A stretch of 64,000 nt of DNA from an uncultured Gammaproteobacteria bacterium (GCA_903837345.1 CAILUG010000020.1:19992-83991); one strand, 5' to 3'. Numbered from the stretch's first letter, positions 46,202-62,691 are shown. Notes: generated by a model not told the origin, from the sequence alone. Numbers and translations: made by a program.

Positions 46202-46993
46202 TCAGGGGACGATGTTGCTGCTGCGGTCGACCGAACTACTGCCGGTACCCACCATCAATTCGACAGCGTAATTGGCCTGCTGGCAAACGTACTCAAACAA
46301 TTCTTCGCCCTGGTTCCAGCGCAGCTTGAAACCGCCATCAAAGGTTTTGGTGTAAGCACCCGGGTCATCAATGGTGATGCGGTAATCAACAGTATTCTTG
46401 TCAGTGCGATTGAAGCGTTCAATGGTGTGCAACATGCTGGTATGCGGCATGCCGCGGCGATCCATCCAGAATTCTTCGTTGTAACCTGCAGTATCCACCA
46501 CCAGCGTGTTGCCCTCCCAGTGGCCAACTGAATGACCGTAGTTGGTCGGCTGCCAGTCAGCAGGATGGGCACGCCCATCCATGTAAATGGTACGGAAGGT
46601 ATGTGGACCACCGATATCAAAAATATAAATCTGTTTCAGGTCCGTCATTTCCAGGAATTCCACTCCGTAGGGAGTCAGGAACTCCCTGGCTGCGCCGGAA
46701 GCCTTGCAACGGGTATGCGGCTCCAGCTCCTTGGTCTGGCGATAGTCAAACACTGCCTTGGACCAGGGCTGGAACGGGATGGAGGCATAAGGTGTGATTG
46801 GTTCCAGGATGCCGAACACCGGGGTCCATACGCCTTTGTCTGCAGCATTGGCTCCGCCCAGCACAACGCGTCCTTGTGCGTTGACAGGCGCCGGCCCGGC
46901 AGGCGGTGCCTGTCGGCCCGGCGGTTGTGCAACCACGGTGCTGGCAATGGCTAATGCAAGCACAGCAATTGTTGCATGTAACGGTTTCATCAT
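46202..46993 (-). CDS. Secreted protein of unknown function (domain X; paralog of the C-terminal two-thirds of the 47511-48623 product)
   Basis: Signal peptide MMKPLHATIAVLALAIASTVVA-QP and SD GAGG 6 nt upstream. It shares motifs with the neighbouring fusion protein: QPW, HxxC, IYMDGR, GxWxGxxLVVxTxGxNExFWM, PHTS, ERF, IDDxGAYT and a C-terminal Cys. Confidence 0.7.
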   Translation of the reverse strand: MMKPLHATIAVLALAIASTVVAQPPGRQAPPAGPAPVNAQGRVVLGGANAADKGVWTPVFGILEPITPYASIPFQPWSKAVFDYRQTKELEPHTRCKASGAAREFLTPYGVEFLEMTDLKQIYIFDIGGPHTFRTIYMDGRAHPADWQPTNYGHSVGHWEGNTLVVDTAGYNEEFWMDRRGMPHTSMLHTIERFNRTDKNTVDYRITIDDPGAYTKTFDGGFKLRWNQGEELFEYVCQQANYAVELMVGTGSSSVDRSSNIVP

Positions 46994-47042
46994 GGTTGGC
47001 CTCAACTGCTTCTTGCCCGGTTTGGAACTGATTTGTACCTGT

Positions 47043-47483
47043 TTACTGCTTTTCTTTGCCGCGCTCTTCCAGCTGGCTGGAACCGGCATCAAGCGTCTGG
47101 CCCGGCTGCCCACCGGTGGCCGACAGCGTTACGCTTTTGGCATTTACCCGGGTCGTGCCATTGCGGGCCAGGAAACCGTCTACAGTGATCTTGGTACCCA
47201 GCGCCAGCGACTCACGACGCCAGCCACGACGCTGCAGCAAATGTGGCGGGCCCAGTTCGGCGCCCCAGGTGGCATTCTGGCCGGTGGCAGGATCCTTCAC
47301 ATTCAGGTAGATCCAGACATGGGGGTTGGTCCACTCGACTTTGGTAACGATGCCTTCAAGTTTGATGGTTTTGTCTGCATCAAACTCGGCAGCAAACGAG
47401 TGGTGGGCTGAAGCAGTGCCGGTCATGGACAATCCAAGAGCGGTTACCAGCAGGCCTGCGATGATTTTTGACTTCATGGACAT
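47043..47483 (-). CDS. Small secreted DUF6152-like protein
   Basis: Signal peptide ending TASA. The mature protein starts HHSFAAEFD...GIVTKVEWTNPHVWIYLNV, a pattern I recall for the uncharacterised DUF6152 family. The start is at 47483 or 47477 (GAGGAGA upstream). Confidence 0.7.
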   Translation of the reverse strand: MSMKSKIIAGLLVTALGLSMTGTASAHHSFAAEFDADKTIKLEGIVTKVEWTNPHVWIYLNVKDPATGQNATWGAELGPPHLLQRRGWRRESLALGTKITVDGFLARNGTTRVNAKSVTLSATGGQPGQTLDAGSSQLEERGKEKQ

Positions 47484-47510
47484 TCTCCTCGACTAGTGAT
47501 GCTTGATGGC

Positions 47511-48623
47511 TCAGGGACGGTTGTCCTGGCAGAAATGGATCGGAACTTCCTGGTCTGGCACCCACTGCATGGTCCAGCTGGCGGTCCACGGACGGGTATA
47601 AGCTCCGCGATCGTCGATCGAAACCTGATACTGCAGTGTATTCATATCAGGCCTCGCAAAACGTTCTGTCAAAACCAGAGAGCTGGTGTGCGGCAAGCCG
47701 CCATTGCTCATCCAGAAATCTTCATTGAAGCCTTTGGTGGTGACCAGCAAGGCATCACCATCCCATTTGCCAATGGCACGGCCATAATAAAGCGGATTGT
47801 CATCATCCCCGGTGACACTGCCGACTTTCTCCCTGCCATCCATGTAGATGATGCGGTAATTGTGATTGCCGCTGCCCATCAGGATGAACACGCGTTGATT
47901 GACCTTGTCCTCGACAAATTTGATCCCCAGATCCGACTGGTACTCGCGCGGTCCGCCTGGGGGTTTGCAGTGCAGGAACATCGGGTCATCACGCAAATCC
48001 CGTTGCTGGCGTTTTTTGTACAAGGCCAGCGCCCATGGTTGCAGTGGTGCAACTTTGGCGGCATCGGCCAGATCAGCCAATTGCCCGTATTTATCCATTT
48101 TTACTTTCACGCCATCTTCGACCAGTGCGTAGCTGCTGGGGAAACCCCAATAACCGGCAGCACTGCCGAACATCACCTTGCCATCGGCGCCGCGTGGAGC
48201 CGGTTCTTTTTTGGCAGGAACGGCAGGATGCAGATCCTTGAGCGCGAACAGAGTGGTACTGCCTTTGGAAACCGATTCGGACCAGAGCTGACGCGAACCA
48301 TCGCGGGCCCTGATGCCTTTGACAGTAAGTGTGTCGCCGGGTTTGACACTGGTACTGCTCCAGCCGCTGCCTTTAAGCAGCAACGGGCTTTCCAGTTCAA
48401 CCGCCCAATTGGCCACGGCTGTCCCGGTTTTCACATTCAGGAAAACATGTACATGCGGATTTTTCCAATCGACATTGGTAACGACGCCGGTGATCGACAT
48501 TTCAGTGGCCTTGTCGAATTTGGCCTGGACAGGATGGTGCGCCAGCGCCGGAGCGCTCGACCAACCAAGCACAGCACTGGTAATGGCTGCGGCTAAAAGG
48601 GATTTCAATCTTGGATTCTGCAT
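47511..48623 (-). CDS. Secreted fusion protein: DUF6152-like N-terminal domain plus domain X
   Basis: The start is set at the ATG at 48623 (AGGTG 5 nt upstream). The signal peptide ends PALA. The mature N-terminus HHPVQAKFD...VVTNVDWKNPHVHVFLNV parallels the 47043 product, and the C-terminal two-thirds parallels the 46202 product. Confidence 0.7.
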   Translation of the reverse strand: MQNPRLKSLLAAAITSAVLGWSSAPALAHHPVQAKFDKATEMSITGVVTNVDWKNPHVHVFLNVKTGTAVANWAVELESPLLLKGSGWSSTSVKPGDTLTVKGIRARDGSRQLWSESVSKGSTTLFALKDLHPAVPAKKEPAPRGADGKVMFGSAAGYWGFPSSYALVEDGVKVKMDKYGQLADLADAAKVAPLQPWALALYKKRQQRDLRDDPMFLHCKPPGGPREYQSDLGIKFVEDKVNQRVFILMGSGNHNYRIIYMDGREKVGSVTGDDDNPLYYGRAIGKWDGDALLVTTKGFNEDFWMSNGGLPHTSSLVLTERFARPDMNTLQYQVSIDDRGAYTRPWTASWTMQWVPDQEVPIHFCQDNRP

Positions 48624-48664
48624 ATCGACACCTGTCATTGCACGCTGGTGGTTTAAAACGCCGC

Positions 48665-49066
48665 TTACTGTCTTACGACTTCCAGCGCACCACTGCCGTT
48701 CTGGCTCTTCCAGGTGCCTACTATCGAACGCGAAGGCAATTCAAGATTTACTATCTTGCCATCCAGTGTGTAGGAAACAGGTTTGTCTTTGGCTTTGCCG
48801 TCGGCTTCGATATGAACTGTCCAGTCGGCAGGATTCAGGGTGGCGGTTTTGATGACCATGTCATCAGTGCCGGGATTGATGGTACCGCTGACTTTCTTGC
48901 CGTCCCAATCAAGCACCAGGAACAGGAAGTCACCACTGGCTTGATTGCCTTTCCATTCGCCTATCCAGGAACCCTTCAAAGGATGCCCTTCCTGGGCGCC
49001 GGCACTGACTGCAAGCAGCAGACCTGCGACCAATAAAACAGCTTTGCGAATAATATTGGACATCAT
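48665..49066 (-). CDS. Small secreted beta-rich protein of unknown function
   Basis: 133 aa with signal peptide AVLLVAGLLLAVSAGA-QE. GSWIGEWKG near the N-terminus and GTWKSQNG near the C-terminus suggest a small barrel. It is the first gene of the four-gene operon. Confidence 0.6.
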   Translation of the reverse strand: MMSNIIRKAVLLVAGLLLAVSAGAQEGHPLKGSWIGEWKGNQASGDFLFLVLDWDGKKVSGTINPGTDDMVIKTATLNPADWTVHIEADGKAKDKPVSYTLDGKIVNLELPSRSIVGTWKSQNGSGALEVVRQ

Positions 49067-49173
49067 GATTGTGAATCCCCTTTAGTGTGCATTTCAATGT
49101 GCATGATTCGAAGGTTTGATCAGAAAACATGCCGGCGCCTTAGGTACCGGATACTGCCTTTTATGATTATCCA

Positions 49174-49194
49174 AACTTTGTATCAAGCAAAGTT
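49174..49194. promoter_or_regulatory. Inverted repeat, candidate operator upstream of the four-gene secreted-protein operon
   Basis: AACTTTG-tatcaag-CAAAGTT has perfect 7-bp arms and lies about 110-130 nt upstream of the 49066 start codon, in an AT-rich promoter-like region. Confidence 0.3.
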
Positions 49195-49310
49195 GTAAAA
49201 AATATGTATTGCGCCATTAATAACCGAAGGGTAGCCAATACTTGCCTGCTACCCCCCCCTCCCGGGGCTTGCCGGAGCAACTGCCGCATATTCCTACTTT
49301 CAGCGCCAAT

Positions 49311-49338
49311 AAAAAAGGGGGAAGGCTGCCCTTCCCCC
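49311..49338 (-). terminator. Rho-independent terminator of the 1010-aa TonB-dependent receptor gene
   Basis: On the minus strand: GGGGGAAGG-gcag-CCTTCCCCC followed by TTTTTT, 30 nt after the stop codon. Confidence 0.75.
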
Positions 49339-49368
49339 TTTCTGTAGCAAACACTTACTGCGAGTGGA

Positions 49369-52300
49369 TCAGAAGTTCACATCCAGACTCAGCTGGAACC
49401 GGCGTCCGAACACGTCGTAGTTGTAATCAACAACCTGGCCAGCAGTCGATGGAATGATCGGCTGATCCCGGTTGAACAAGTTACTGATGCCGAAGCTGAC
49501 CTTGTAGTTCTTGTCAGCCCATTTGTCACCATAGGACAGGTTCAGGTTGGTGACTGCCTGGGAAGCAATACGGTTATGGTCAACGTCAATACCTTCGATC
49601 CAGGTGTTGTTGAGCAGGGTATGACCCACGTATCTCTCGAAAATACCGACCCCGAATTTGCCAACCTGGTAGTTGGCAGAAACTGTAGCCGTATATTTAG
49701 GACGATCCTGGCCATTGGCTGCATCAACAACAGTGCCGTTGAACGAAGTTGTGGAGTTCTCGCTGAGGTAACCCACGAGGGCTTTCACAGTCAAATGCTC
49801 GTCCAGATCAGCCACCCAGTTCGGCAGGAAGCTGTACTGAACTTCCAGGTCGGTGCCACGGGTTTGTGCTTTGCCGATGTTCTGATACTCATCCAGGACG
49901 CGGGTGATGACATTGGTAGTCGGATCACGCGAGATCAGCGCACACTGGCCTGCATCCCCGGCAAAGCAGTCATCTGCAATACGCTGGGCTCCGAAACGAG
50001 CCAATGCGCTGGCGATGTTGATTTGGTACCAATCCACGGAGAGCTGCACGCCTTCAACCCACGATGCAAAAGTGGGCTGATAAACCAGACCCGTCGTCAC
50101 CGTAGTAGCTTGTTCGTTATGCAGGTTAGGGTTCGGGCTGGCCAATATTGTCAACGAAGCGTTGGTCACGTTGGTACCGTTGGCTGTCGTTGCTTTGTCA
50201 ACAACGGAGCCACCTCCAGTTGCCGTCAAATAACGTTCGGCGAAGGTCGGTTCACGCACGTCGCGCGAACGTGTGTAGCGCCAGCGGAGATCCTTCATCA
50301 ACTGGGCATCCAGACCGAATTTCCAGCTGGGCGTACGACCGAAGTTGGAAAAATCCGCGCTGCGATAGGCCAGATCCGAAGTCAAGGTTTGTCCACTCTC
50401 CAGTTTCAGAACCGGAATGTTCACCTCGGCAAACTCCTCGGACACATGATCTTTGCTGCCACCAACACCGATGGCGGAGAACGGGTTCAAGGAACGGTTA
50501 CCTGCGCTGGCAAAGCCAGTGGAGATACCCCGGATACCATCAGCCGGATCGTTCAAAACACCACGTTCGCCATAGCTTGGGTTGTTGACCTGATTGAAAT
50601 CTTCCTTGCGCCAGGTAGCACCTACTGCCAGTGAAACAGGGCCAGCGCCCCAACCTTTGTAGATCTCACCCGTCAGCAAGCCTTCAGCGTAACTCTGGTT
50701 CAGTATGCGCGACTGGATTTTCTGCTCCAGGGTCATCCAGTTATCTGCCGCCACGTTGGAATTACCGGCACCCAGCACGTTGAAGGGTATGCAAGTTGAC
50801 GGATCGACCGGACCAATCGGCGAGGTGACAGTTACACCGTCAGGAGTGATCGGGCTCGGCAACTTCTTGCCTGCCACGAAGGCAGCCAGCGAGGCCGCGC
50901 TCGGATTGACCTTGGTGATGTTACAGATGGTCTTGCCCGAGGTCGGGTCGGTCACCGCATCCATACTCAGGAAGAACAAGTCGATACGGGGTACACCCTC
51001 CAGACCGGTAGCAACCTTTGAACGACCACGCTGGAAGTGGCCTGACAAGTCCCAGTTGTCGTTGATCTTGTAGTCAAAACCCAGGGTGCCGGATGCCAAT
51101 TGGCCAAGACTGGTATCAGTACGATTGCTGTACGGATCCACATAGCCTGGGGAATTGATAACACCCGTTTTGCTCATCGTAAACGAGGTGATGTTGGCCG
51201 CAGTCATTGCATCCTTGACCGACTGTGGCAGGTACGGGTTGGTGTTGAATACAGTGAAGGCATAGGTCGCGCCGGCAATGGCCATGCTGGCACGCTGACC
51301 AGAAAGGTAGGACCCGGTGCGCCCCATAATCAGCTGGGCAGTCACGTTGAGCTGGTCGTTCACATCGTATTTCGCACCCAGGAACATGGAGCGCTGATCT
51401 ACTTCGTTGCCACGAACGCCCAAGTTGTTGCTGTTGGAAGCAACATACTGGTTGTATTCATTACCGCCGCTCTGGTTCAGCGTCGCGCCAGAACCGGAAA
51501 CTGAGCTGTATTGGCCGTAGCTATACGGGCGAACACTTTTGCCATCTTCGGCAAAGGTATAGCCCTTCAGGCTGAAGTTGGAGGGGCCAAGAATCAGGCC
51601 AGTTGGCGACGACTGGTTGCCGAAAACATAGGGAGCCCAGATACGGACGGGATTGGTGGCAGCAGTGCCGTTGTAGTTCGGGTTGCGGACCAGGCCATAG
51701 TTTTTCCAGTTGGAGGCACTTGCATCAGCATCGATCTGGTCAATGTAACGGGCTTGAAGACTGCCGATGATGTGCAGCTTGTTGTCCATGAAGGCTTTGC
51801 CGCCAGCAAGCGAGAAACTGTAGTTTTCACCAGTTCCCAGCTCGGAGATGCCGGAGGAAACAGAGCCTTTGAAACCTTCAAAATTGCGATCAACTACAAA
51901 GTTGACCACACCTGCCACTGCGTCTGAACCGTAAGCTGCAGAGGCGCCGCCGGTGATCACATCAACCCGCTTCAGAAGAGCAGTCGGGAAATTGTCGATG
52001 TTGACGCTGTTGTTGGCATCCGCCGGAACGATACGCGAGCCGTCCAGCAGCACGAGGGTACGGTTCTGGCCCATGCCGCGCAGGTTCAGATAACTGCCGC
52101 CAGCCTGGGTGCTGATGGCACCGAAAGTGCGCTGTGCGGTTACGGTTGAAAAGAATTGCGGCAACGTCGCCAGTTCATCTGCGATTGTGGCTCCCGGTTT
52201 GGCGTTGGTCAGTTCATCAGTGGTAATGGCAGTCACCGGAGTCGGTGTAACCATGCCGGTCTGATTACGGATACGGGTACCGGTAATCTGGATCTCTTCG

Positions 52301-52401
52301 ATGTTTGACGTCGCGCTCTGGGCGTATACGCCCGTGACAAAAGCAGCTGTTACGGCTGTAACCAGCAGTTTCTGTCTGAAATTTACAGAATTATTCCGCA
52401 T
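49369..52401 (-). CDS. TonB-dependent outer-membrane receptor (large, about 1000 aa class)
   Basis: Signal peptide; a plug region with IEEIQITGTRI (TonB-box-like) and NLRGMGQNRTLVLLDGSR; a long beta-barrel; terminal aromatic residue (…LSLDVNF). GAGGAG SD. Confidence 0.92.
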   Translation of the reverse strand: MRNNSVNFRQKLLVTAVTAAFVTGVYAQSATSNIEEIQITGTRIRNQTGMVTPTPVTAITTDELTNAKPGATIADELATLPQFFSTVTAQRTFGAISTQAGGSYLNLRGMGQNRTLVLLDGSRIVPADANNSVNIDNFPTALLKRVDVITGGASAAYGSDAVAGVVNFVVDRNFEGFKGSVSSGISELGTGENYSFSLAGGKAFMDNKLHIIGSLQARYIDQIDADASASNWKNYGLVRNPNYNGTAATNPVRIWAPYVFGNQSSPTGLILGPSNFSLKGYTFAEDGKSVRPYSYGQYSSVSGSGATLNQSGGNEYNQYVASNSNNLGVRGNEVDQRSMFLGAKYDVNDQLNVTAQLIMGRTGSYLSGQRASMAIAGATYAFTVFNTNPYLPQSVKDAMTAANITSFTMSKTGVINSPGYVDPYSNRTDTSLGQLASGTLGFDYKINDNWDLSGHFQRGRSKVATGLEGVPRIDLFFLSMDAVTDPTSGKTICNITKVNPSAASLAAFVAGKKLPSPITPDGVTVTSPIGPVDPSTCIPFNVLGAGNSNVAADNWMTLEQKIQSRILNQSYAEGLLTGEIYKGWGAGPVSLAVGATWRKEDFNQVNNPSYGERGVLNDPADGIRGISTGFASAGNRSLNPFSAIGVGGSKDHVSEEFAEVNIPVLKLESGQTLTSDLAYRSADFSNFGRTPSWKFGLDAQLMKDLRWRYTRSRDVREPTFAERYLTATGGGSVVDKATTANGTNVTNASLTILASPNPNLHNEQATTVTTGLVYQPTFASWVEGVQLSVDWYQINIASALARFGAQRIADDCFAGDAGQCALISRDPTTNVITRVLDEYQNIGKAQTRGTDLEVQYSFLPNWVADLDEHLTVKALVGYLSENSTTSFNGTVVDAANGQDRPKYTATVSANYQVGKFGVGIFERYVGHTLLNNTWIEGIDVDHNRIASQAVTNLNLSYGDKWADKNYKVSFGISNLFNRDQPIIPSTAGQVVDYNYDVFGRRFQLSLDVNF

Positions 52402-55291: not shown

Positions 55292-55535
55292 TAATCCCCC
55301 ATAGTTTTAGTTGTGTACAAGATTGAGTCATACAGATATCGCTTTTAATGGCGAATCTTAATTTAATAGTACACCAAAACTCCGAAATAACCACCCAATG
55401 CAAGGGTATTCGCCCTCAAATGTGCACGTCCAACCGCGTCCTTGCAATTGGTCCTTTTTACTGGTTACTTGTGCAATACGGCTTGCACGATAGTAAACAA
55501 ACATCATATTTTTCAAAAAATTGCGTAATTTTCTT

Positions 55536-56510
55536 ATGAAAATCCACAAAATCATCCTTTCTTTGTTCGCCTCCATCCTTTTGGGCGTATTTGCACAGTT
55601 GCAGAGCGCCAGCGCCCAGACCATGCCACCCTCGCCAGCCCTGCCCGACTGTGACCGCAATTGCCTGAACGGGATTGCTGAAAACGTCTTGGCAGCACTG
55701 GTTGCCCATGACCCCAAACGGGTTGCCTGGGCTGACTCAGTCAAGTTCACAGAGAACAATGTACCGCTGCCAATAGGCGATGGCATCTGGGGCACAATTA
55801 CCGGCCTTGGCACCTATAAACTCTATGTCGCAGATGAAAAGTCCGGCGAAGTCGGGTTCTTTGGCCAGGTTCTGGAACCAGGATTCCCATCCCTGATGGC
55901 CATGCGCCTCAAGGTGGTCCACAAAAAGGTCAGTGAAGCAGAGATGGTAGTGCTGCGCATGATCAATGAACCCAAAGGCATCGTCTGGCCCGAGCCGGTG
56001 CTGGAGAACAAGCCCGTCTTTACTGAAACAGTACCCGCTGGCAAACGCCGTGAACGGGAACGACTCATCTCCATCGCCAATGGCTATTTCGATACCCTGC
56101 AACTCAACGATGGCACCCTCTTCACCGAGTTTGCCAGGGATTGTGACCGGGTAGAGAACGGCACCAAGACCACCCACAACTCCAAAGTGGACTTCACTTC
56201 AGTAGGAGCGCTTGGCTGTGAGGAACAATTCAGGCAGGGCAATTACCGCTACGATGACAGATTGCGTGCCAGGCGTTTTCCGCTGGTGGATGAAGACCGC
56301 GGCCTGGTGCTTGCTGCTGCCTTTATTGATCATTCCGGTGTGCTGGGTGAATACACACTTACCGACGGACGCGTGATTAAATCGCCGATTCGCTATCCAC
56401 ATTCTTTCTATCTGCTGGAACTGTTCAAAATCGAGGATGGAAAAATCCGGCAGATTGAATCCGTGTTTGTGACCGTGCCCTATGGCATGGGCTCACCGTG
56501 GCTGCCCTGA
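55536..56510 (+). CDS. Secreted protein of unknown function (paralog of the truncated gene at 63679)
   Basis: Signal peptide MKIHKIILSLFASILLGVFAQLQSASA. It shares DCDRxCL...FxENxVxxPxGxGxWGTI with the 63679 product. I recognise no known family. Confidence 0.65.
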   Translation: MKIHKIILSLFASILLGVFAQLQSASAQTMPPSPALPDCDRNCLNGIAENVLAALVAHDPKRVAWADSVKFTENNVPLPIGDGIWGTITGLGTYKLYVADEKSGEVGFFGQVLEPGFPSLMAMRLKVVHKKVSEAEMVVLRMINEPKGIVWPEPVLENKPVFTETVPAGKRRERERLISIANGYFDTLQLNDGTLFTEFARDCDRVENGTKTTHNSKVDFTSVGALGCEEQFRQGNYRYDDRLRARRFPLVDEDRGLVLAAAFIDHSGVLGEYTLTDGRVIKSPIRYPHSFYLLELFKIEDGKIRQIESVFVTVPYGMGSPWLP

Positions 56511-60333: not shown

Positions 60334-60462
60334 TCAAGCTCTGGTCATGACCAATATCAGTCGATTAGAGGGCAATGCCAATCAGGCTTTCAGCTCATGG
60401 TCACTCCATCGAAATATCCAGTATCATCAGCCCCCTTCCCGGGGAATCAGAACACCAACAAC

Positions 60463-62691
60463 ATGAACCCTTTCAAATCCTTGCTGCTGGTAGCTTCGGC
60501 ACTTTTGCTGGTTGCTTGCAGCCACCATGATAGTGATAGAACAACCGGGGCTGCGCCTGCCAGTACGCAGCCCACCAGCTTCGGCAATGTCACCCGCGAA
60601 CGTTTGCTCAAGGCCGACCAGGAACCCGGCCAATGGATGACAGAAGGACGTGATCTGGGCAAATCCCACTACTCGGCACTGGCACAGATCAACCTGCAAA
60701 ACGTCAGCCGTCTCGCCCTGGCCTGGGATTACAAAACCGATACGCATCGCGGCATGGAGTCAAATCCGGTCATGGTGGATGGAGTGCTCTACACTTCCGG
60801 CACCACAGGCCGCGTCTACGCCCTGAACGCTGCCACTGGCGAACAGCTCTGGTATTTCAATCCGGAGAGTGATGGCCAGGTGAATCGCTATACCTGCTGC
60901 GATGAAGTCAACCGCGGCATCGCTGTGTGGGAAGGCCTGGTCTATGTCGGCTCGCTCGACGGACGTCTGTTCGCTCTTGATGCAAAATCCGGTGCAGTGA
61001 AGTGGCAAGCAGATACCTTCATTTATAAAAACCGGGCCTACACGTCGAGTGGTGCGCCCCAGATTGCCGGCAACGTGGTAGTGCTTGGCAATGCCGGCGC
61101 CGATTACGACGCGCGCGGGTACGTCAGTGCCTATGATCTCAAGACCGGCGAATTCAAATGGCGCTTCTTTACGGTGCCAGGCGATCCAAACCTGGGATTT
61201 GAACATCCTGAACTGGAGTTGGCTGCAAAAACCTGGGATCCCGACAGTCGTTGGGATGTGGGCGGTGGTGGCACTGCCTGGAACACGATGAGCTACGATC
61301 CGGAATTGAATCTGCTCTACGTCGGTACCGGCAATGCGGCGCTGTTCAACTGGCACGAACGCAGCCCATCCGGCGGGGACAACCTGTTCCTGTGTTCGAT
61401 TCTGGCGATCAATCCGGATACCGGCCGTATGGTCTGGTATTACCAGCAAGTACCGCGTGAAAGCTGGGACTTCACAGCCACCCAACCCTTCATTCTCACT
61501 GACATGGAATTCAACGGCAGCGTGCACAAGGTGATCATGCAGGCACCGAAGGCCGGCTTCTTCTATATCCTGGATCGTGCCAGCGGCAAACTGTTGTCAG
61601 CCAATCCGTATGTTCCCGTGAACTGGGCCTCGCATGTGGATCTGGAAACCGGACGCCCCGCCATGAACCCCGCTGTGGACTACAATCCCGGCCCGATCTT
61701 TGTCGAACCCTCCGGCATGGGTGGCCATGCGTGGAACCCGATGGCTTACAACCCTGCCAACAAACTCGTCTACATTCCGGCCATTGAAGCCGGAGCGATG
61801 AGTTATGACGCTACCGTCGGTCATGTCTATCGCCCCAAACAAGCCAACTCCGGCAATACAATCCTGTTCGGCGATTCGATGCTGACCAATCCGGATCTGT
61901 TGCAGGAGCCGATGAAGTCGGCACTGCGCGCCGTGCAGCAAGCAGGCAAGGCCAACTCACGGGCAGTGTTGAAAGCGTTCGATCCCGCCACCGGCAAGGT
62001 GGTGTGGGAACATCAAAACGAGGGCTGGTGGGATCGGGCCGGTGTGCTTGCCACCGCCGGCGGTCTGGTGTTCCAGGGCACTGACAGCGGTTATCTGAAA
62101 GCCTTCAACCAGAGCACCGGTGAAGAAATCCTGAACCTGAAGGTGGGCACATCCATTATCGCTGCACCTATCACCTACCAGGTCGACGGCGTGCAATACA
62201 TTGCCGTCAACGCGGGCTGGGGTGGTGGAGGCTGGTTTGCACCGCATGAATCCAGCGCCGTGATCAAATATGGCAACCAGGATCGCATCATAGCCTTCAA
62301 ACTTGACGGTGCCCCGGTACCATTGCCACCGGCAACCAGTGCCGTTGGCCCGCTGCCGAAACCGGCAGTCGAGAACAACGCCAGTGCAGATACCATAAGC
62401 GAAGGCCGCCGCCTGTTCGGTGCAAGCTGTGCCATCTGCCACGCCAACAATGACTATGGACTCACGCCTGATCTGCGTCGCATGACCAAGGAAATCCATG
62501 ATGGCTTCAAAGGCATCGTGCTGTTCGGTGCACGCCGCAACAAAGGCATGCCACAATGGGACGATGTGCTCAATGACAAACAGGCCGATGCCATCCACGC
62601 CTATCTGACCGACCTCGCCTGGCAGGCCTACAATGCCCAGCAAGCCAACAACAAACTTGAAACTGCACCTACCAACACCACAGGACACTGA
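60463..62691 (+). CDS. PQQ-dependent quinohemoprotein alcohol dehydrogenase, predicted lipoprotein
   Basis: Lipobox LLLVAC-S. Beta-propeller W-motifs and the vicinal-disulfide signature YTCCDEVNRG of PQQ ADH/MDH active sites. A C-terminal cytochrome c domain carries CAICH. Confidence 0.88.
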   Translation: MNPFKSLLLVASALLLVACSHHDSDRTTGAAPASTQPTSFGNVTRERLLKADQEPGQWMTEGRDLGKSHYSALAQINLQNVSRLALAWDYKTDTHRGMESNPVMVDGVLYTSGTTGRVYALNAATGEQLWYFNPESDGQVNRYTCCDEVNRGIAVWEGLVYVGSLDGRLFALDAKSGAVKWQADTFIYKNRAYTSSGAPQIAGNVVVLGNAGADYDARGYVSAYDLKTGEFKWRFFTVPGDPNLGFEHPELELAAKTWDPDSRWDVGGGGTAWNTMSYDPELNLLYVGTGNAALFNWHERSPSGGDNLFLCSILAINPDTGRMVWYYQQVPRESWDFTATQPFILTDMEFNGSVHKVIMQAPKAGFFYILDRASGKLLSANPYVPVNWASHVDLETGRPAMNPAVDYNPGPIFVEPSGMGGHAWNPMAYNPANKLVYIPAIEAGAMSYDATVGHVYRPKQANSGNTILFGDSMLTNPDLLQEPMKSALRAVQQAGKANSRAVLKAFDPATGKVVWEHQNEGWWDRAGVLATAGGLVFQGTDSGYLKAFNQSTGEEILNLKVGTSIIAAPITYQVDGVQYIAVNAGWGGGGWFAPHESSAVIKYGNQDRIIAFKLDGAPVPLPPATSAVGPLPKPAVENNASADTISEGRRLFGASCAICHANNDYGLTPDLRRMTKEIHDGFKGIVLFGARRNKGMPQWDDVLNDKQADAIHAYLTDLAWQAYNAQQANNKLETAPTNTTGH

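Follow-up and report, generated by a model that had tools for sequence, protein, structure and literature searches.

Secreted metalloproteins with an N-terminal histidine include the histidine-brace lytic polysaccharide monooxygenases (LPMOs), CopC, the CuB site of PmoB, and YcnI, and "signal strapping" finds DUF4198, DUF6702, and Ang-1/Ang-2 (PMC12537917, PMC10952591, PMC8424229). Experiments with DUF4198 (nickel), DUF6702, and the "anglerases" have shown that a conserved N-terminal histidine, exposed when the signal peptide is cleaved, chelates metals regardless of the fold that carries it (PMC12537917). DUF6152 (PF19649) is not among the families in those three papers or their supplements. 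We found no mention of it in the literature searched, and nothing relevant there on a histidine brace or a lanthanide in connection with an oligonucleotide/oligosaccharide-binding (OB) fold. Here we describe a four-gene cassette (genes A to D) that encodes two DUF6152 domains, each predicted to begin with His-His after export. It lies in a stretch of 64,000 nucleotides from an uncultured gammaproteobacterium (GCA_903837345.1, CAILUG010000020.1:19992-83991), referred to below as the window, with positions counted from its first letter. From sequence comparisons, we tentatively propose that the cassette encodes a periplasmic complex that binds metal through an N-terminal-histidine chelate carried by a new scaffold.

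A conserved cassette of three protein families

The cassette consists of four co-directional open reading frames on the minus strand, with intergenic gaps of 41 (A-B), 27 (B-C), and 49 (C-D) nucleotides (nt); an earlier note on this DNA, made from the sequence alone, had delimited the same four genes. An alternative in-frame ATG at 48638 would give B a 375-amino-acid (aa) numbering. The start at 48623 is likelier, since relatives of B are 370 aa long and AGGTG precedes that position. Read from the sequence, the N termini of A, B, C, and D each have a basic stretch, a hydrophobic stretch, and a small-x-Ala site, with cleavage predicted by the -3/-1 rule. Signal peptides were therefore found on all four proteins, as the earlier note had stated, while the AxA cleavage site that it ascribed to each is not universal, D having VxA (VVA↓QPP).

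A scan of one genome per species yielded 502 loci that encode a relative of B, and the locus counts given below refer to the best 80 of these unless another sample is named. The 80 loci come from uncultured Gammaproteobacteria (Pseudohongiellaceae, Pseudomonadales, and Rariloculus-like members) and from Acidobacteriota (Terriglobia, Bryobacteraceae, and Vicinamibacterales). The order A-B-C-D on one strand was found in 62 loci across the two phyla; most of the remaining loci run into a contig end or have A relocated behind D (L054, L066, and L075). Median gaps are 3, 25, and 10 nt, and A adjoins B in 72 loci. In an independent, A-anchored scan of metagenome contigs, 29 loci had at least 2.7 kb of sequence downstream of A; B, C, or D genes follow A in every one of them, and the full set is present in 22. 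A is never found apart from its partners. The earlier note had held that a lack of conserved co-occurrence in other genomes would speak against its proposal. What we found is conserved co-occurrence, and the four-gene operon is real and is kept together in uncultured Gammaproteobacteria and Acidobacteriota that number in the hundreds.

The B orthologs of Acidobacteriota (L013, L017, L019, L024, L028, L035, and others) are about 52 to 60% identical to those of Gammaproteobacteria, a high value for periplasmic proteins of different phyla that suggests strong constraint, horizontal transfer, or both. Some cassette-bearing metagenome-assembled genomes are labeled Klebsiella pneumoniae, Enterobacteriaceae, or Bifidobacteriaceae (L008, L009, L026, L050, and L056). 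In gene content and synteny they agree with the Pseudohongiellaceae-like and other environmental loci, which makes these taxonomic labels look unreliable.

The four genes represent three protein families, B combining the C and D types. Residues 11 to 128 of B are 39% identical to C (E = 8e-23), and residues 146 to 371 are 35% identical to D (E = 3e-46), similarities that mark B as a natural fusion of a DUF6152 domain with a domain that we call X. Pfam assigns DUF6152 to aa 28 to 116 of B (E = 3e-22, 78.8 bits) and to aa 19 to 111 of C (E = 4e-29, 100.9 bits); the gathering score, which both clearly exceed, is 27 bits. At E values up to 1, the scan returned DUF6152, one chance hit, and nothing else, including no match to CusF (PF11604) or BOF/YgiW (PF04076). 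A and D have no match in Pfam or NCBIfam. The earlier note, which recognized no catalytic or transport motif in any of the four proteins, was thus nearly right: it holds for A and D, and B and C match a family that has no function assigned. It overlooked the fusion nature of B and the His-His start of both OB domains.

All three families are large. We detected 875 homologs of A, all unnamed, more than 2,500 relatives of B, and, in a collection clustered at 90% identity, about 5,000 of D. The X domain, for which there is no Pfam model, forms 10,066 clusters at 50% identity (E values up to 1e-3). When 45 A-type and 34 X-type relatives were scanned against Pfam and NCBIfam at E values up to 10, nothing beyond DUF6152 emerged, and profile-profile comparison detected no homology between A and X. 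No further copies of the three families were found elsewhere in the window.

Extra C-D pairs without A are common. Distant examples occur on plasmids of cultured sphingomonads, and cultured carriers of C-D pairs include Croceibacterium atlanticum 26DY36, Novosphingobium humi KACC 19094, and Sphingobium sp. TomTYG65. In Croceibacterium atlanticum (L085, 9001-13200), a DUF6152/X pair without A lies beside a TonB-dependent receptor and a MarR regulator. The pair on a plasmid of Sphingobium sp. TomTYG65 (L087, 7128-9656), also without A, is part of a cluster of sulfonate-utilization and other genes, with monooxygenases, a peroxiredoxin, tauD, ssuD, a sulfonate-binding protein, and a TonB-dependent receptor. 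Another distant sphingomonad plasmid pair adjoins a TetR regulator.

N-terminal histidines and the NPH motif

A His-His pair stands directly behind the signal peptide, in the context small-x-A↓His-His, in 177 of 182 DUF6152 domains. The distance from there to an NPH motif farther along the chain is 26 residues, or 25 in four cases. Even in sphingomonad homologs of about 32% identity, A-H-H, P-H, and a glutamate are invariant.

The two histidine motifs vary together. His-His has been lost in 13 of 107 B-type proteins, and all 13 have also replaced the NPH histidine (by R in eight, Y in four, and Q in one); all 94 B-type proteins that retain His-His keep it (Fisher p = 6e-17, with at least three replacement types). 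Given this joint loss, the motifs seem to behave as one functional site, which the N-terminal His-His and the histidine of the NPH loop appear to form between them. Among C-type proteins the NPH histidine never varies, and in four loci where B has lost His-His (L002, L006, L037, and L052) the partner C keeps both motifs.

The B proteins that lack His-His (P0004, P0006, P0007, P0009 to P0013, P0015, P0016, P0042, P0047, and P0055) have mature N termini that start with Q or ER. They include the closest relatives of the B protein in the window, which itself retains both His-His and NPH.

Predicted folds and invariant residues

The AlphaFold 2 (AF2) model of B (mean predicted local distance difference test [pLDDT] score of 82, predicted template modeling [pTM] score of 0.80) comprises an N-terminal OB-fold and a C-terminal X domain, and the DUF6152 domain is accordingly predicted to be an OB-fold. 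The pTM score suggests that the two domains meet at a defined interface. Foldseek searches of the PDB and BFVD with this model gave generic OB-fold matches only (the LysRS anticodon domain, SSB, and PriB, with a weak match to CcmE further down, at rank 50), and none of the top 50 matches fell in the X domain. When PDB sequences were searched with a profile made from the alignment of B, only one chance hit was returned.

Invariant positions in C are A26, H27, H28, N53, P54, H55, and E76, and those in D are Cys96, Cys237, Arg134, Glu192, and Asp210. X domains share an invariant Arg, Glu, and Asp together with many invariant Trp and Tyr residues. Those of the B type have in addition an invariant acidic GDDDNP loop of their own. 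The X domain of B also holds the Cys224/Cys370 pair.

In all 81 fusions that we saw, the OB domain comes first, an order that leaves its amino terminus free. A scan of longer X-type proteins for informative fusions found only DUF6152, a second X domain, or CarboxypepD_reg as fused partners. Three tandem X-X proteins of 532 to 560 aa are encoded on the minus strand at L005:5825-7423, L010:5613-7295, and L014:2004-3602. Each of their genes adjoins a stand-alone DUF6152 gene and lies just upstream of, and divergent from, an A-B-C-D cassette. The tandem proteins suggest that pairing also takes place between X domains.

Cassette-type C proteins end in a conserved C-terminal tail, TGGxPGxTLDAxSS (window 47043-47120), and D proteins are conserved to the last residue in the tail CQQxNYAxELMVG...VDRSSxIVP (window 46202-46290). 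Both tails are missing from the fused B and may for that reason be contact elements of the unfused pair.

Protein A is predicted to be an eight-stranded up-and-down beta-barrel of the calycin/avidin-like kind, its AF2 model showing eight consecutive beta-strands (pLDDT of 87.7). The best fold matches in the PDB were the lipocalin-like BT_0869 and avidins; these were weak, with E values of 0.02 to 0.1, template modeling (TM) scores of 0.5 to 0.6, and 10 to 14% identity. Judging from the models, both the OB-fold and the calycin-like barrel are of a kind that serves binding and do not belong to the classical folds of enzymes.

Leader region and feature coordinates

The features of the cassette and its leader are collected in Table 1. 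Upstream of A, the GC content falls to 36 to 44% between 49050 and 49250, compared with about 55% over the window, in a leader of about 300 nt. We compared this leader with the orthologous leaders of L001, whose B protein is 88% identical to that of the window, and L003 (B 74% identical). The terminator of the upstream receptor gene is present in both. In the alignment of the three leaders, CATATTTTTTACAACTTTG..TG.TA.AAA (49174-49206) is kept, and besides the terminator and the ribosome-binding site it is the sole intergenic block common to all three.

A 7-nt perfect inverted repeat lies within this block (49174-49180/49188-49194). The block TTTTTTACAACTTTG..TG.TA.AAA is kept in L001 and L003 within leaders that have otherwise diverged; the right arm of the repeat is not conserved there. 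The unconserved arm gives the block the look of a promoter and less that of a palindromic operator, and on this comparison it is probably a promoter of the extended -10 type. No sigma-70 or sigma-54 promoter of convincing consensus was found in the leader, and no 8-mer was prominently shared upstream of A in 77 loci. The direct repeat TGTGCAT-N5-TGTGCAT occurs once in the window, compared with 0.12 matches expected. We rejected it as an operator because it is missing from the leaders of L001 and L003.

The earlier note's view that the four genes form a separate transcription unit agrees with the terminator on the upstream gene and the conserved promoter-like block in the leader. Its AT-rich control region, with an inverted and a direct repeat, is present as described; the part that gives way is the direct repeat as a control element.

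Table 1. Coordinates of the cassette genes, domains of B, and leader features in the window
Feature	Position	Strand	Description
Gene A	48665-49066	-	133-aa exported protein; signal cleavage AGA↓QEGHP
Gene B	47511-48623	-	370-aa exported fusion of DUF6152 OB-fold (predicted) and X domain; cleavage ALA↓HHP
Gene C	47043-47483	-	146-aa (or 144-aa) exported stand-alone DUF6152 OB-fold protein (fold predicted); cleavage ASA↓HHSF
Gene D	46202-46993	-	263-aa exported stand-alone X-domain protein; cleavage VVA↓QPP
DUF6152 OB-fold domain of B (predicted)	48245-48539	-	Starts at His34-His35 (375-aa numbering); NPHVH 60-64; Glu81
X domain of B, aa 146-375	47514-48203	-	Pro-rich lead-in, short helices, then eight beta-strands
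Direct repeat TGTGCAT-N5-TGTGCAT	49086-49104	+	Directly precedes the Shine-Dalgarno sequence of gene A; probably not functional
Conserved leader block CATATTTTTTACAACTTTGCTTGATACAAAGTT	49174-49206	-	Holds the 7-nt inverted repeat; T-tract, then extended -10-like TGnTAnAAA
Intrinsic terminator of the upstream TonB-dependent receptor gene (49369-52401)	49314-49341	-	Perfect 12-bp stem (49314-49325/49330-49341), 4-nt loop, T-run

A candidate periplasmic metal-binding module

The operon is real, strongly conserved, and uncharacterized, and it is a promising conserved hypothetical rather than a demonstrated new mechanism. We postulate that it encodes a self-contained periplasmic module of three uncharacterized families, expressed from its own promoter, in which the DUF6152 OB-fold domains, one in B and one forming C, would be the working parts. 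Cleavage by signal peptidase would turn His-His into residues 1 and 2. The free amino group and the imidazoles of His-His, the histidine of NPH, and possibly the invariant Glu could then chelate a transition-metal ion. Cu(II) is most typical of such N-terminal sites and would be the first candidate, with Ni(II) or Zn(II) possible.

Each OB domain would dock on an X domain, covalently in B and in an expected non-covalent C:D pair, and B and C:D could come together as two OB-X units related by pseudo-symmetry. Protein A may be a small ligand-binding barrel, an accessory carrier or partner whose gene would be translationally coupled to that of B. We speculate that the module captures, buffers, or passes on periplasmic metal, or that it uses the metal as the center of an enzyme.

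Several observations weigh against this proposal of a metal-binding complex. The N terminus of the B model, where the chelate would form, has a pLDDT of about 66, a moderate confidence, and at a single locus (L052) His-His is lost and NPH is kept. None of the proteins has a Met-rich or Cys-rich motif typical of Cu(I) handling. In the regions upstream of A at 77 loci, matches to boxes of the Fur, Zur, PhoB, and MerR-like types are no better than those in shuffled sequence, and no metal-homeostasis gene stays beside the cassette across genomes. The histidine-brace proteins known so far have a beta-sandwich in place of an OB-fold. The X domain has many invariant polar residues, which could also indicate an enzyme unrelated to His-His.

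A bolder version of the proposal is that DUF6152 is a new and widespread OB-fold scaffold for N-terminal His-His metal sites. With X and A, it would then make up a hitherto unrecognized periplasmic metalloprotein machine shared by Acidobacteriota and Gammaproteobacteria, which could be an oxidative copper enzyme of a new kind or a partner that supplies metal to lanthanide-type pyrroloquinoline quinone (PQQ) dehydrogenases, rather than a simple buffer. On the same sequence comparisons, we regard this as quite improbable.

Neighboring genes and alternative explanations

In the window, the cassette is set in the core chromosome, with sucA, sdhA, gltA, gltX, cysG, ftsK, clpA, purB, and hrpA. Pfam matches identify a carboxylesterase, an alpha/beta hydrolase, two TonB-dependent receptors, a cbb3 oxidase, and a PQQ quinohemoprotein dehydrogenase among its neighbors, bearing out the esterase, receptors, and quinohemoprotein dehydrogenase that the earlier note had listed. 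Between the genes for the second receptor and the cbb3 oxidase, positions 55521 to 56510 on the plus strand encode a 329-aa exported protein without a Pfam match, a relative of which was found near a B gene in L078. Neighbors in other genomes include alanine racemase (alr), argininosuccinate lyase (argH), hemC/hemD, malonyl-coenzyme A decarboxylase, P450, major facilitator superfamily transporters, and ankyrin proteins.

The earlier note suggested an accessory module for handling a TonB-imported substrate or metal. The corresponding hypothesis, that the barrels bind an organic substrate brought in by the adjacent receptors (e.g., an ester or an aromatic compound) and hand it on to periplasmic esterases, to dioxygenases, or to transporters in the inner membrane, draws on the fact that a receptor gene lies no more than 1.1 kb upstream, in the same direction, in the window and in 13 loci, all of them from Gammaproteobacteria related to the window; the receptors found there belong to two different families. 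Despite rearrangements, this lineage retains an alpha/beta hydrolase, a glyoxalase-family (VOC) protein, and a carboxylesterase close to the cassette in 14 to 15 loci, receptors adjoin the C-D pairs on the Croceibacterium and Sphingobium plasmids, and both A and the OB-fold have predicted ligand-binding folds. However, a receptor was found within 8 kb in only 22 of the 80 loci and not in the other 58, and the taxa are so rich in receptors that 22 is about the chance level (an estimate from the receptor counts usual in these taxa). Housekeeping genes are the neighbors in many genomes, the receptor gene of the window ends in its own terminator, and uptake leaves the invariant N-terminal His-His unexplained. 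We consider this explanation rather unlikely, and as a general rule the accessory role in TonB-dependent import does not hold. Of the two halves of the earlier suggestion, metal is favored by the sequence evidence, and the TonB substrate is unsupported across genomes. That the proteins form a metal-independent periplasmic complex instead, either an envelope-homeostasis or chaperone-like set akin to periplasmic OB-fold stress proteins or an X-domain enzyme in which His-His provides acid/base or ligand contacts, would suit the stand-alone, housekeeping-like context of the operon, the 55 to 60% identity of B across phyla, the invariant Arg, Glu, Asp, Trp, and Tyr residues of X, and the lack of enrichment of Fur, Zur, and Pho-type boxes. 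We judge it unlikely, though plausible: no Pfam match connects the proteins to BOF/YgiW, CusF, or any enzyme family, and the strict placement of His-His at the cleavage site, together with the OB-first fusions, points to a free amino terminus, which is typical of metal chelation (PMC12537917).

The cassette might alternatively serve lanthanide-type periplasmic PQQ dehydrogenases by supplying or holding their metal cofactor, by electron transfer, or in their maturation. A PQQ dehydrogenase gene is found within 8 kb in 19 of the 80 loci, from several lineages (L012, L015, L019, L020, L024, L028, L029, L030, L035, L037, L040, L053, L056, L069, L070, L071, L074, L077, and L079), at a median nearest distance of 1.7 kb, and it is directly adjacent in L028, L056, and L019. 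The motif WDxD, with the lanthanide-type aspartate of XoxF/ExaF/PedH, is present in 19 of 20 readable active-site motifs of these neighboring enzymes, and the acidic GDDDNP loop of B-type X domains would fit such a role. The taxa are rich in PQQ dehydrogenases, however; the enrichment may be only two- to fivefold over loci that are phylogenetically non-independent, and the remaining 61 loci have no such gene nearby. The window does encode a PQQ quinohemoprotein dehydrogenase (60397-62691, plus strand) with a C-terminal cytochrome c domain, 11 kb from the cassette, but its motif is WDFT, the calcium type, and receptors and the cbb3 oxidase lie between the two. Histidine ligands are unusual for lanthanide ions, and none of the four proteins has a heme motif (CXXCH). 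We therefore hold a partnership with PQQ dehydrogenases to be very unlikely, and we tentatively retain the N-terminal-histidine metal-binding complex as our preferred reading.

Acidobacteriota and Gammaproteobacteria dominate soils and fresh waters. A role of the cassette in the periplasmic metal economy, or in support of PQQ dehydrogenases, would bear on oligotrophic, mostly uncultured heterotrophs. The natural OB-X and X-X fusions predict protein contacts, and the double losses of His-His and the NPH histidine single out residues for mutation; together they make the metal question directly testable.

Comparison with known systems

Protein A resembles calycins (lipocalin-like proteins and avidins) in its predicted eight-stranded up-and-down barrel, in a G-x-W motif in the first strand, and in conserved Trp and Arg residues. 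It differs from them in lacking a C-terminal helix and a Pfam lipocalin hit, and its fold matches are weak.

The periplasmic OB-fold proteins CusF (a Cu/Ag chaperone), BOF/YgiW, and CcmE (a heme chaperone) are, like the predicted DUF6152 domain, small five-stranded barrels of the periplasm. CusF carries a Met/His/Trp site inside the barrel and CcmE a C-terminal His; neither has an N-terminal His-His, and the Pfam models of these proteins have no sequence match to the cassette proteins. Of lanthanide-handling features of the lanmodulin type, Pfam and PDB sequence searches revealed no EF-hand or homology, only the acidic GDDDNP loop of the B type. B and C are members of Pfam DUF6152, whose family description holds no function or structure; the links to the X domain, to protein A, and to a four-gene cassette are likewise not in that description.

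The closest parallel is with the N-terminal-histidine metalloproteins. As in those proteins, cleavage of the signal peptide is predicted to expose a conserved His1, with which a second conserved His co-varies, in a small, beta-rich, periplasmic protein; in some genomes its gene lies beside one for a TonB-dependent receptor, as is also the case for DUF4198. The DUF6152 scaffold is a predicted OB-fold, in contrast to the Ig-like/cupredoxin-like sandwich of LPMOs, CopC, and PmoB. Its motif is His-His, also of the Xaa-His type, and the metal is in this case only inferred. DUF6152 also always comes with an X domain, fused or adjacent, to which the cassette adds the calycin-like A. The N-terminal-histidine class has so far yielded LPMOs and copper chaperones, to which nickel binders were recently added. 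Should the His-His OB domain bind metal, DUF6152 would bring a new structural class to the secreted N-terminal-histidine metalloproteins, and the cassette as a whole would be the OB-fold version of these proteins, equipped with obligate partner domains.

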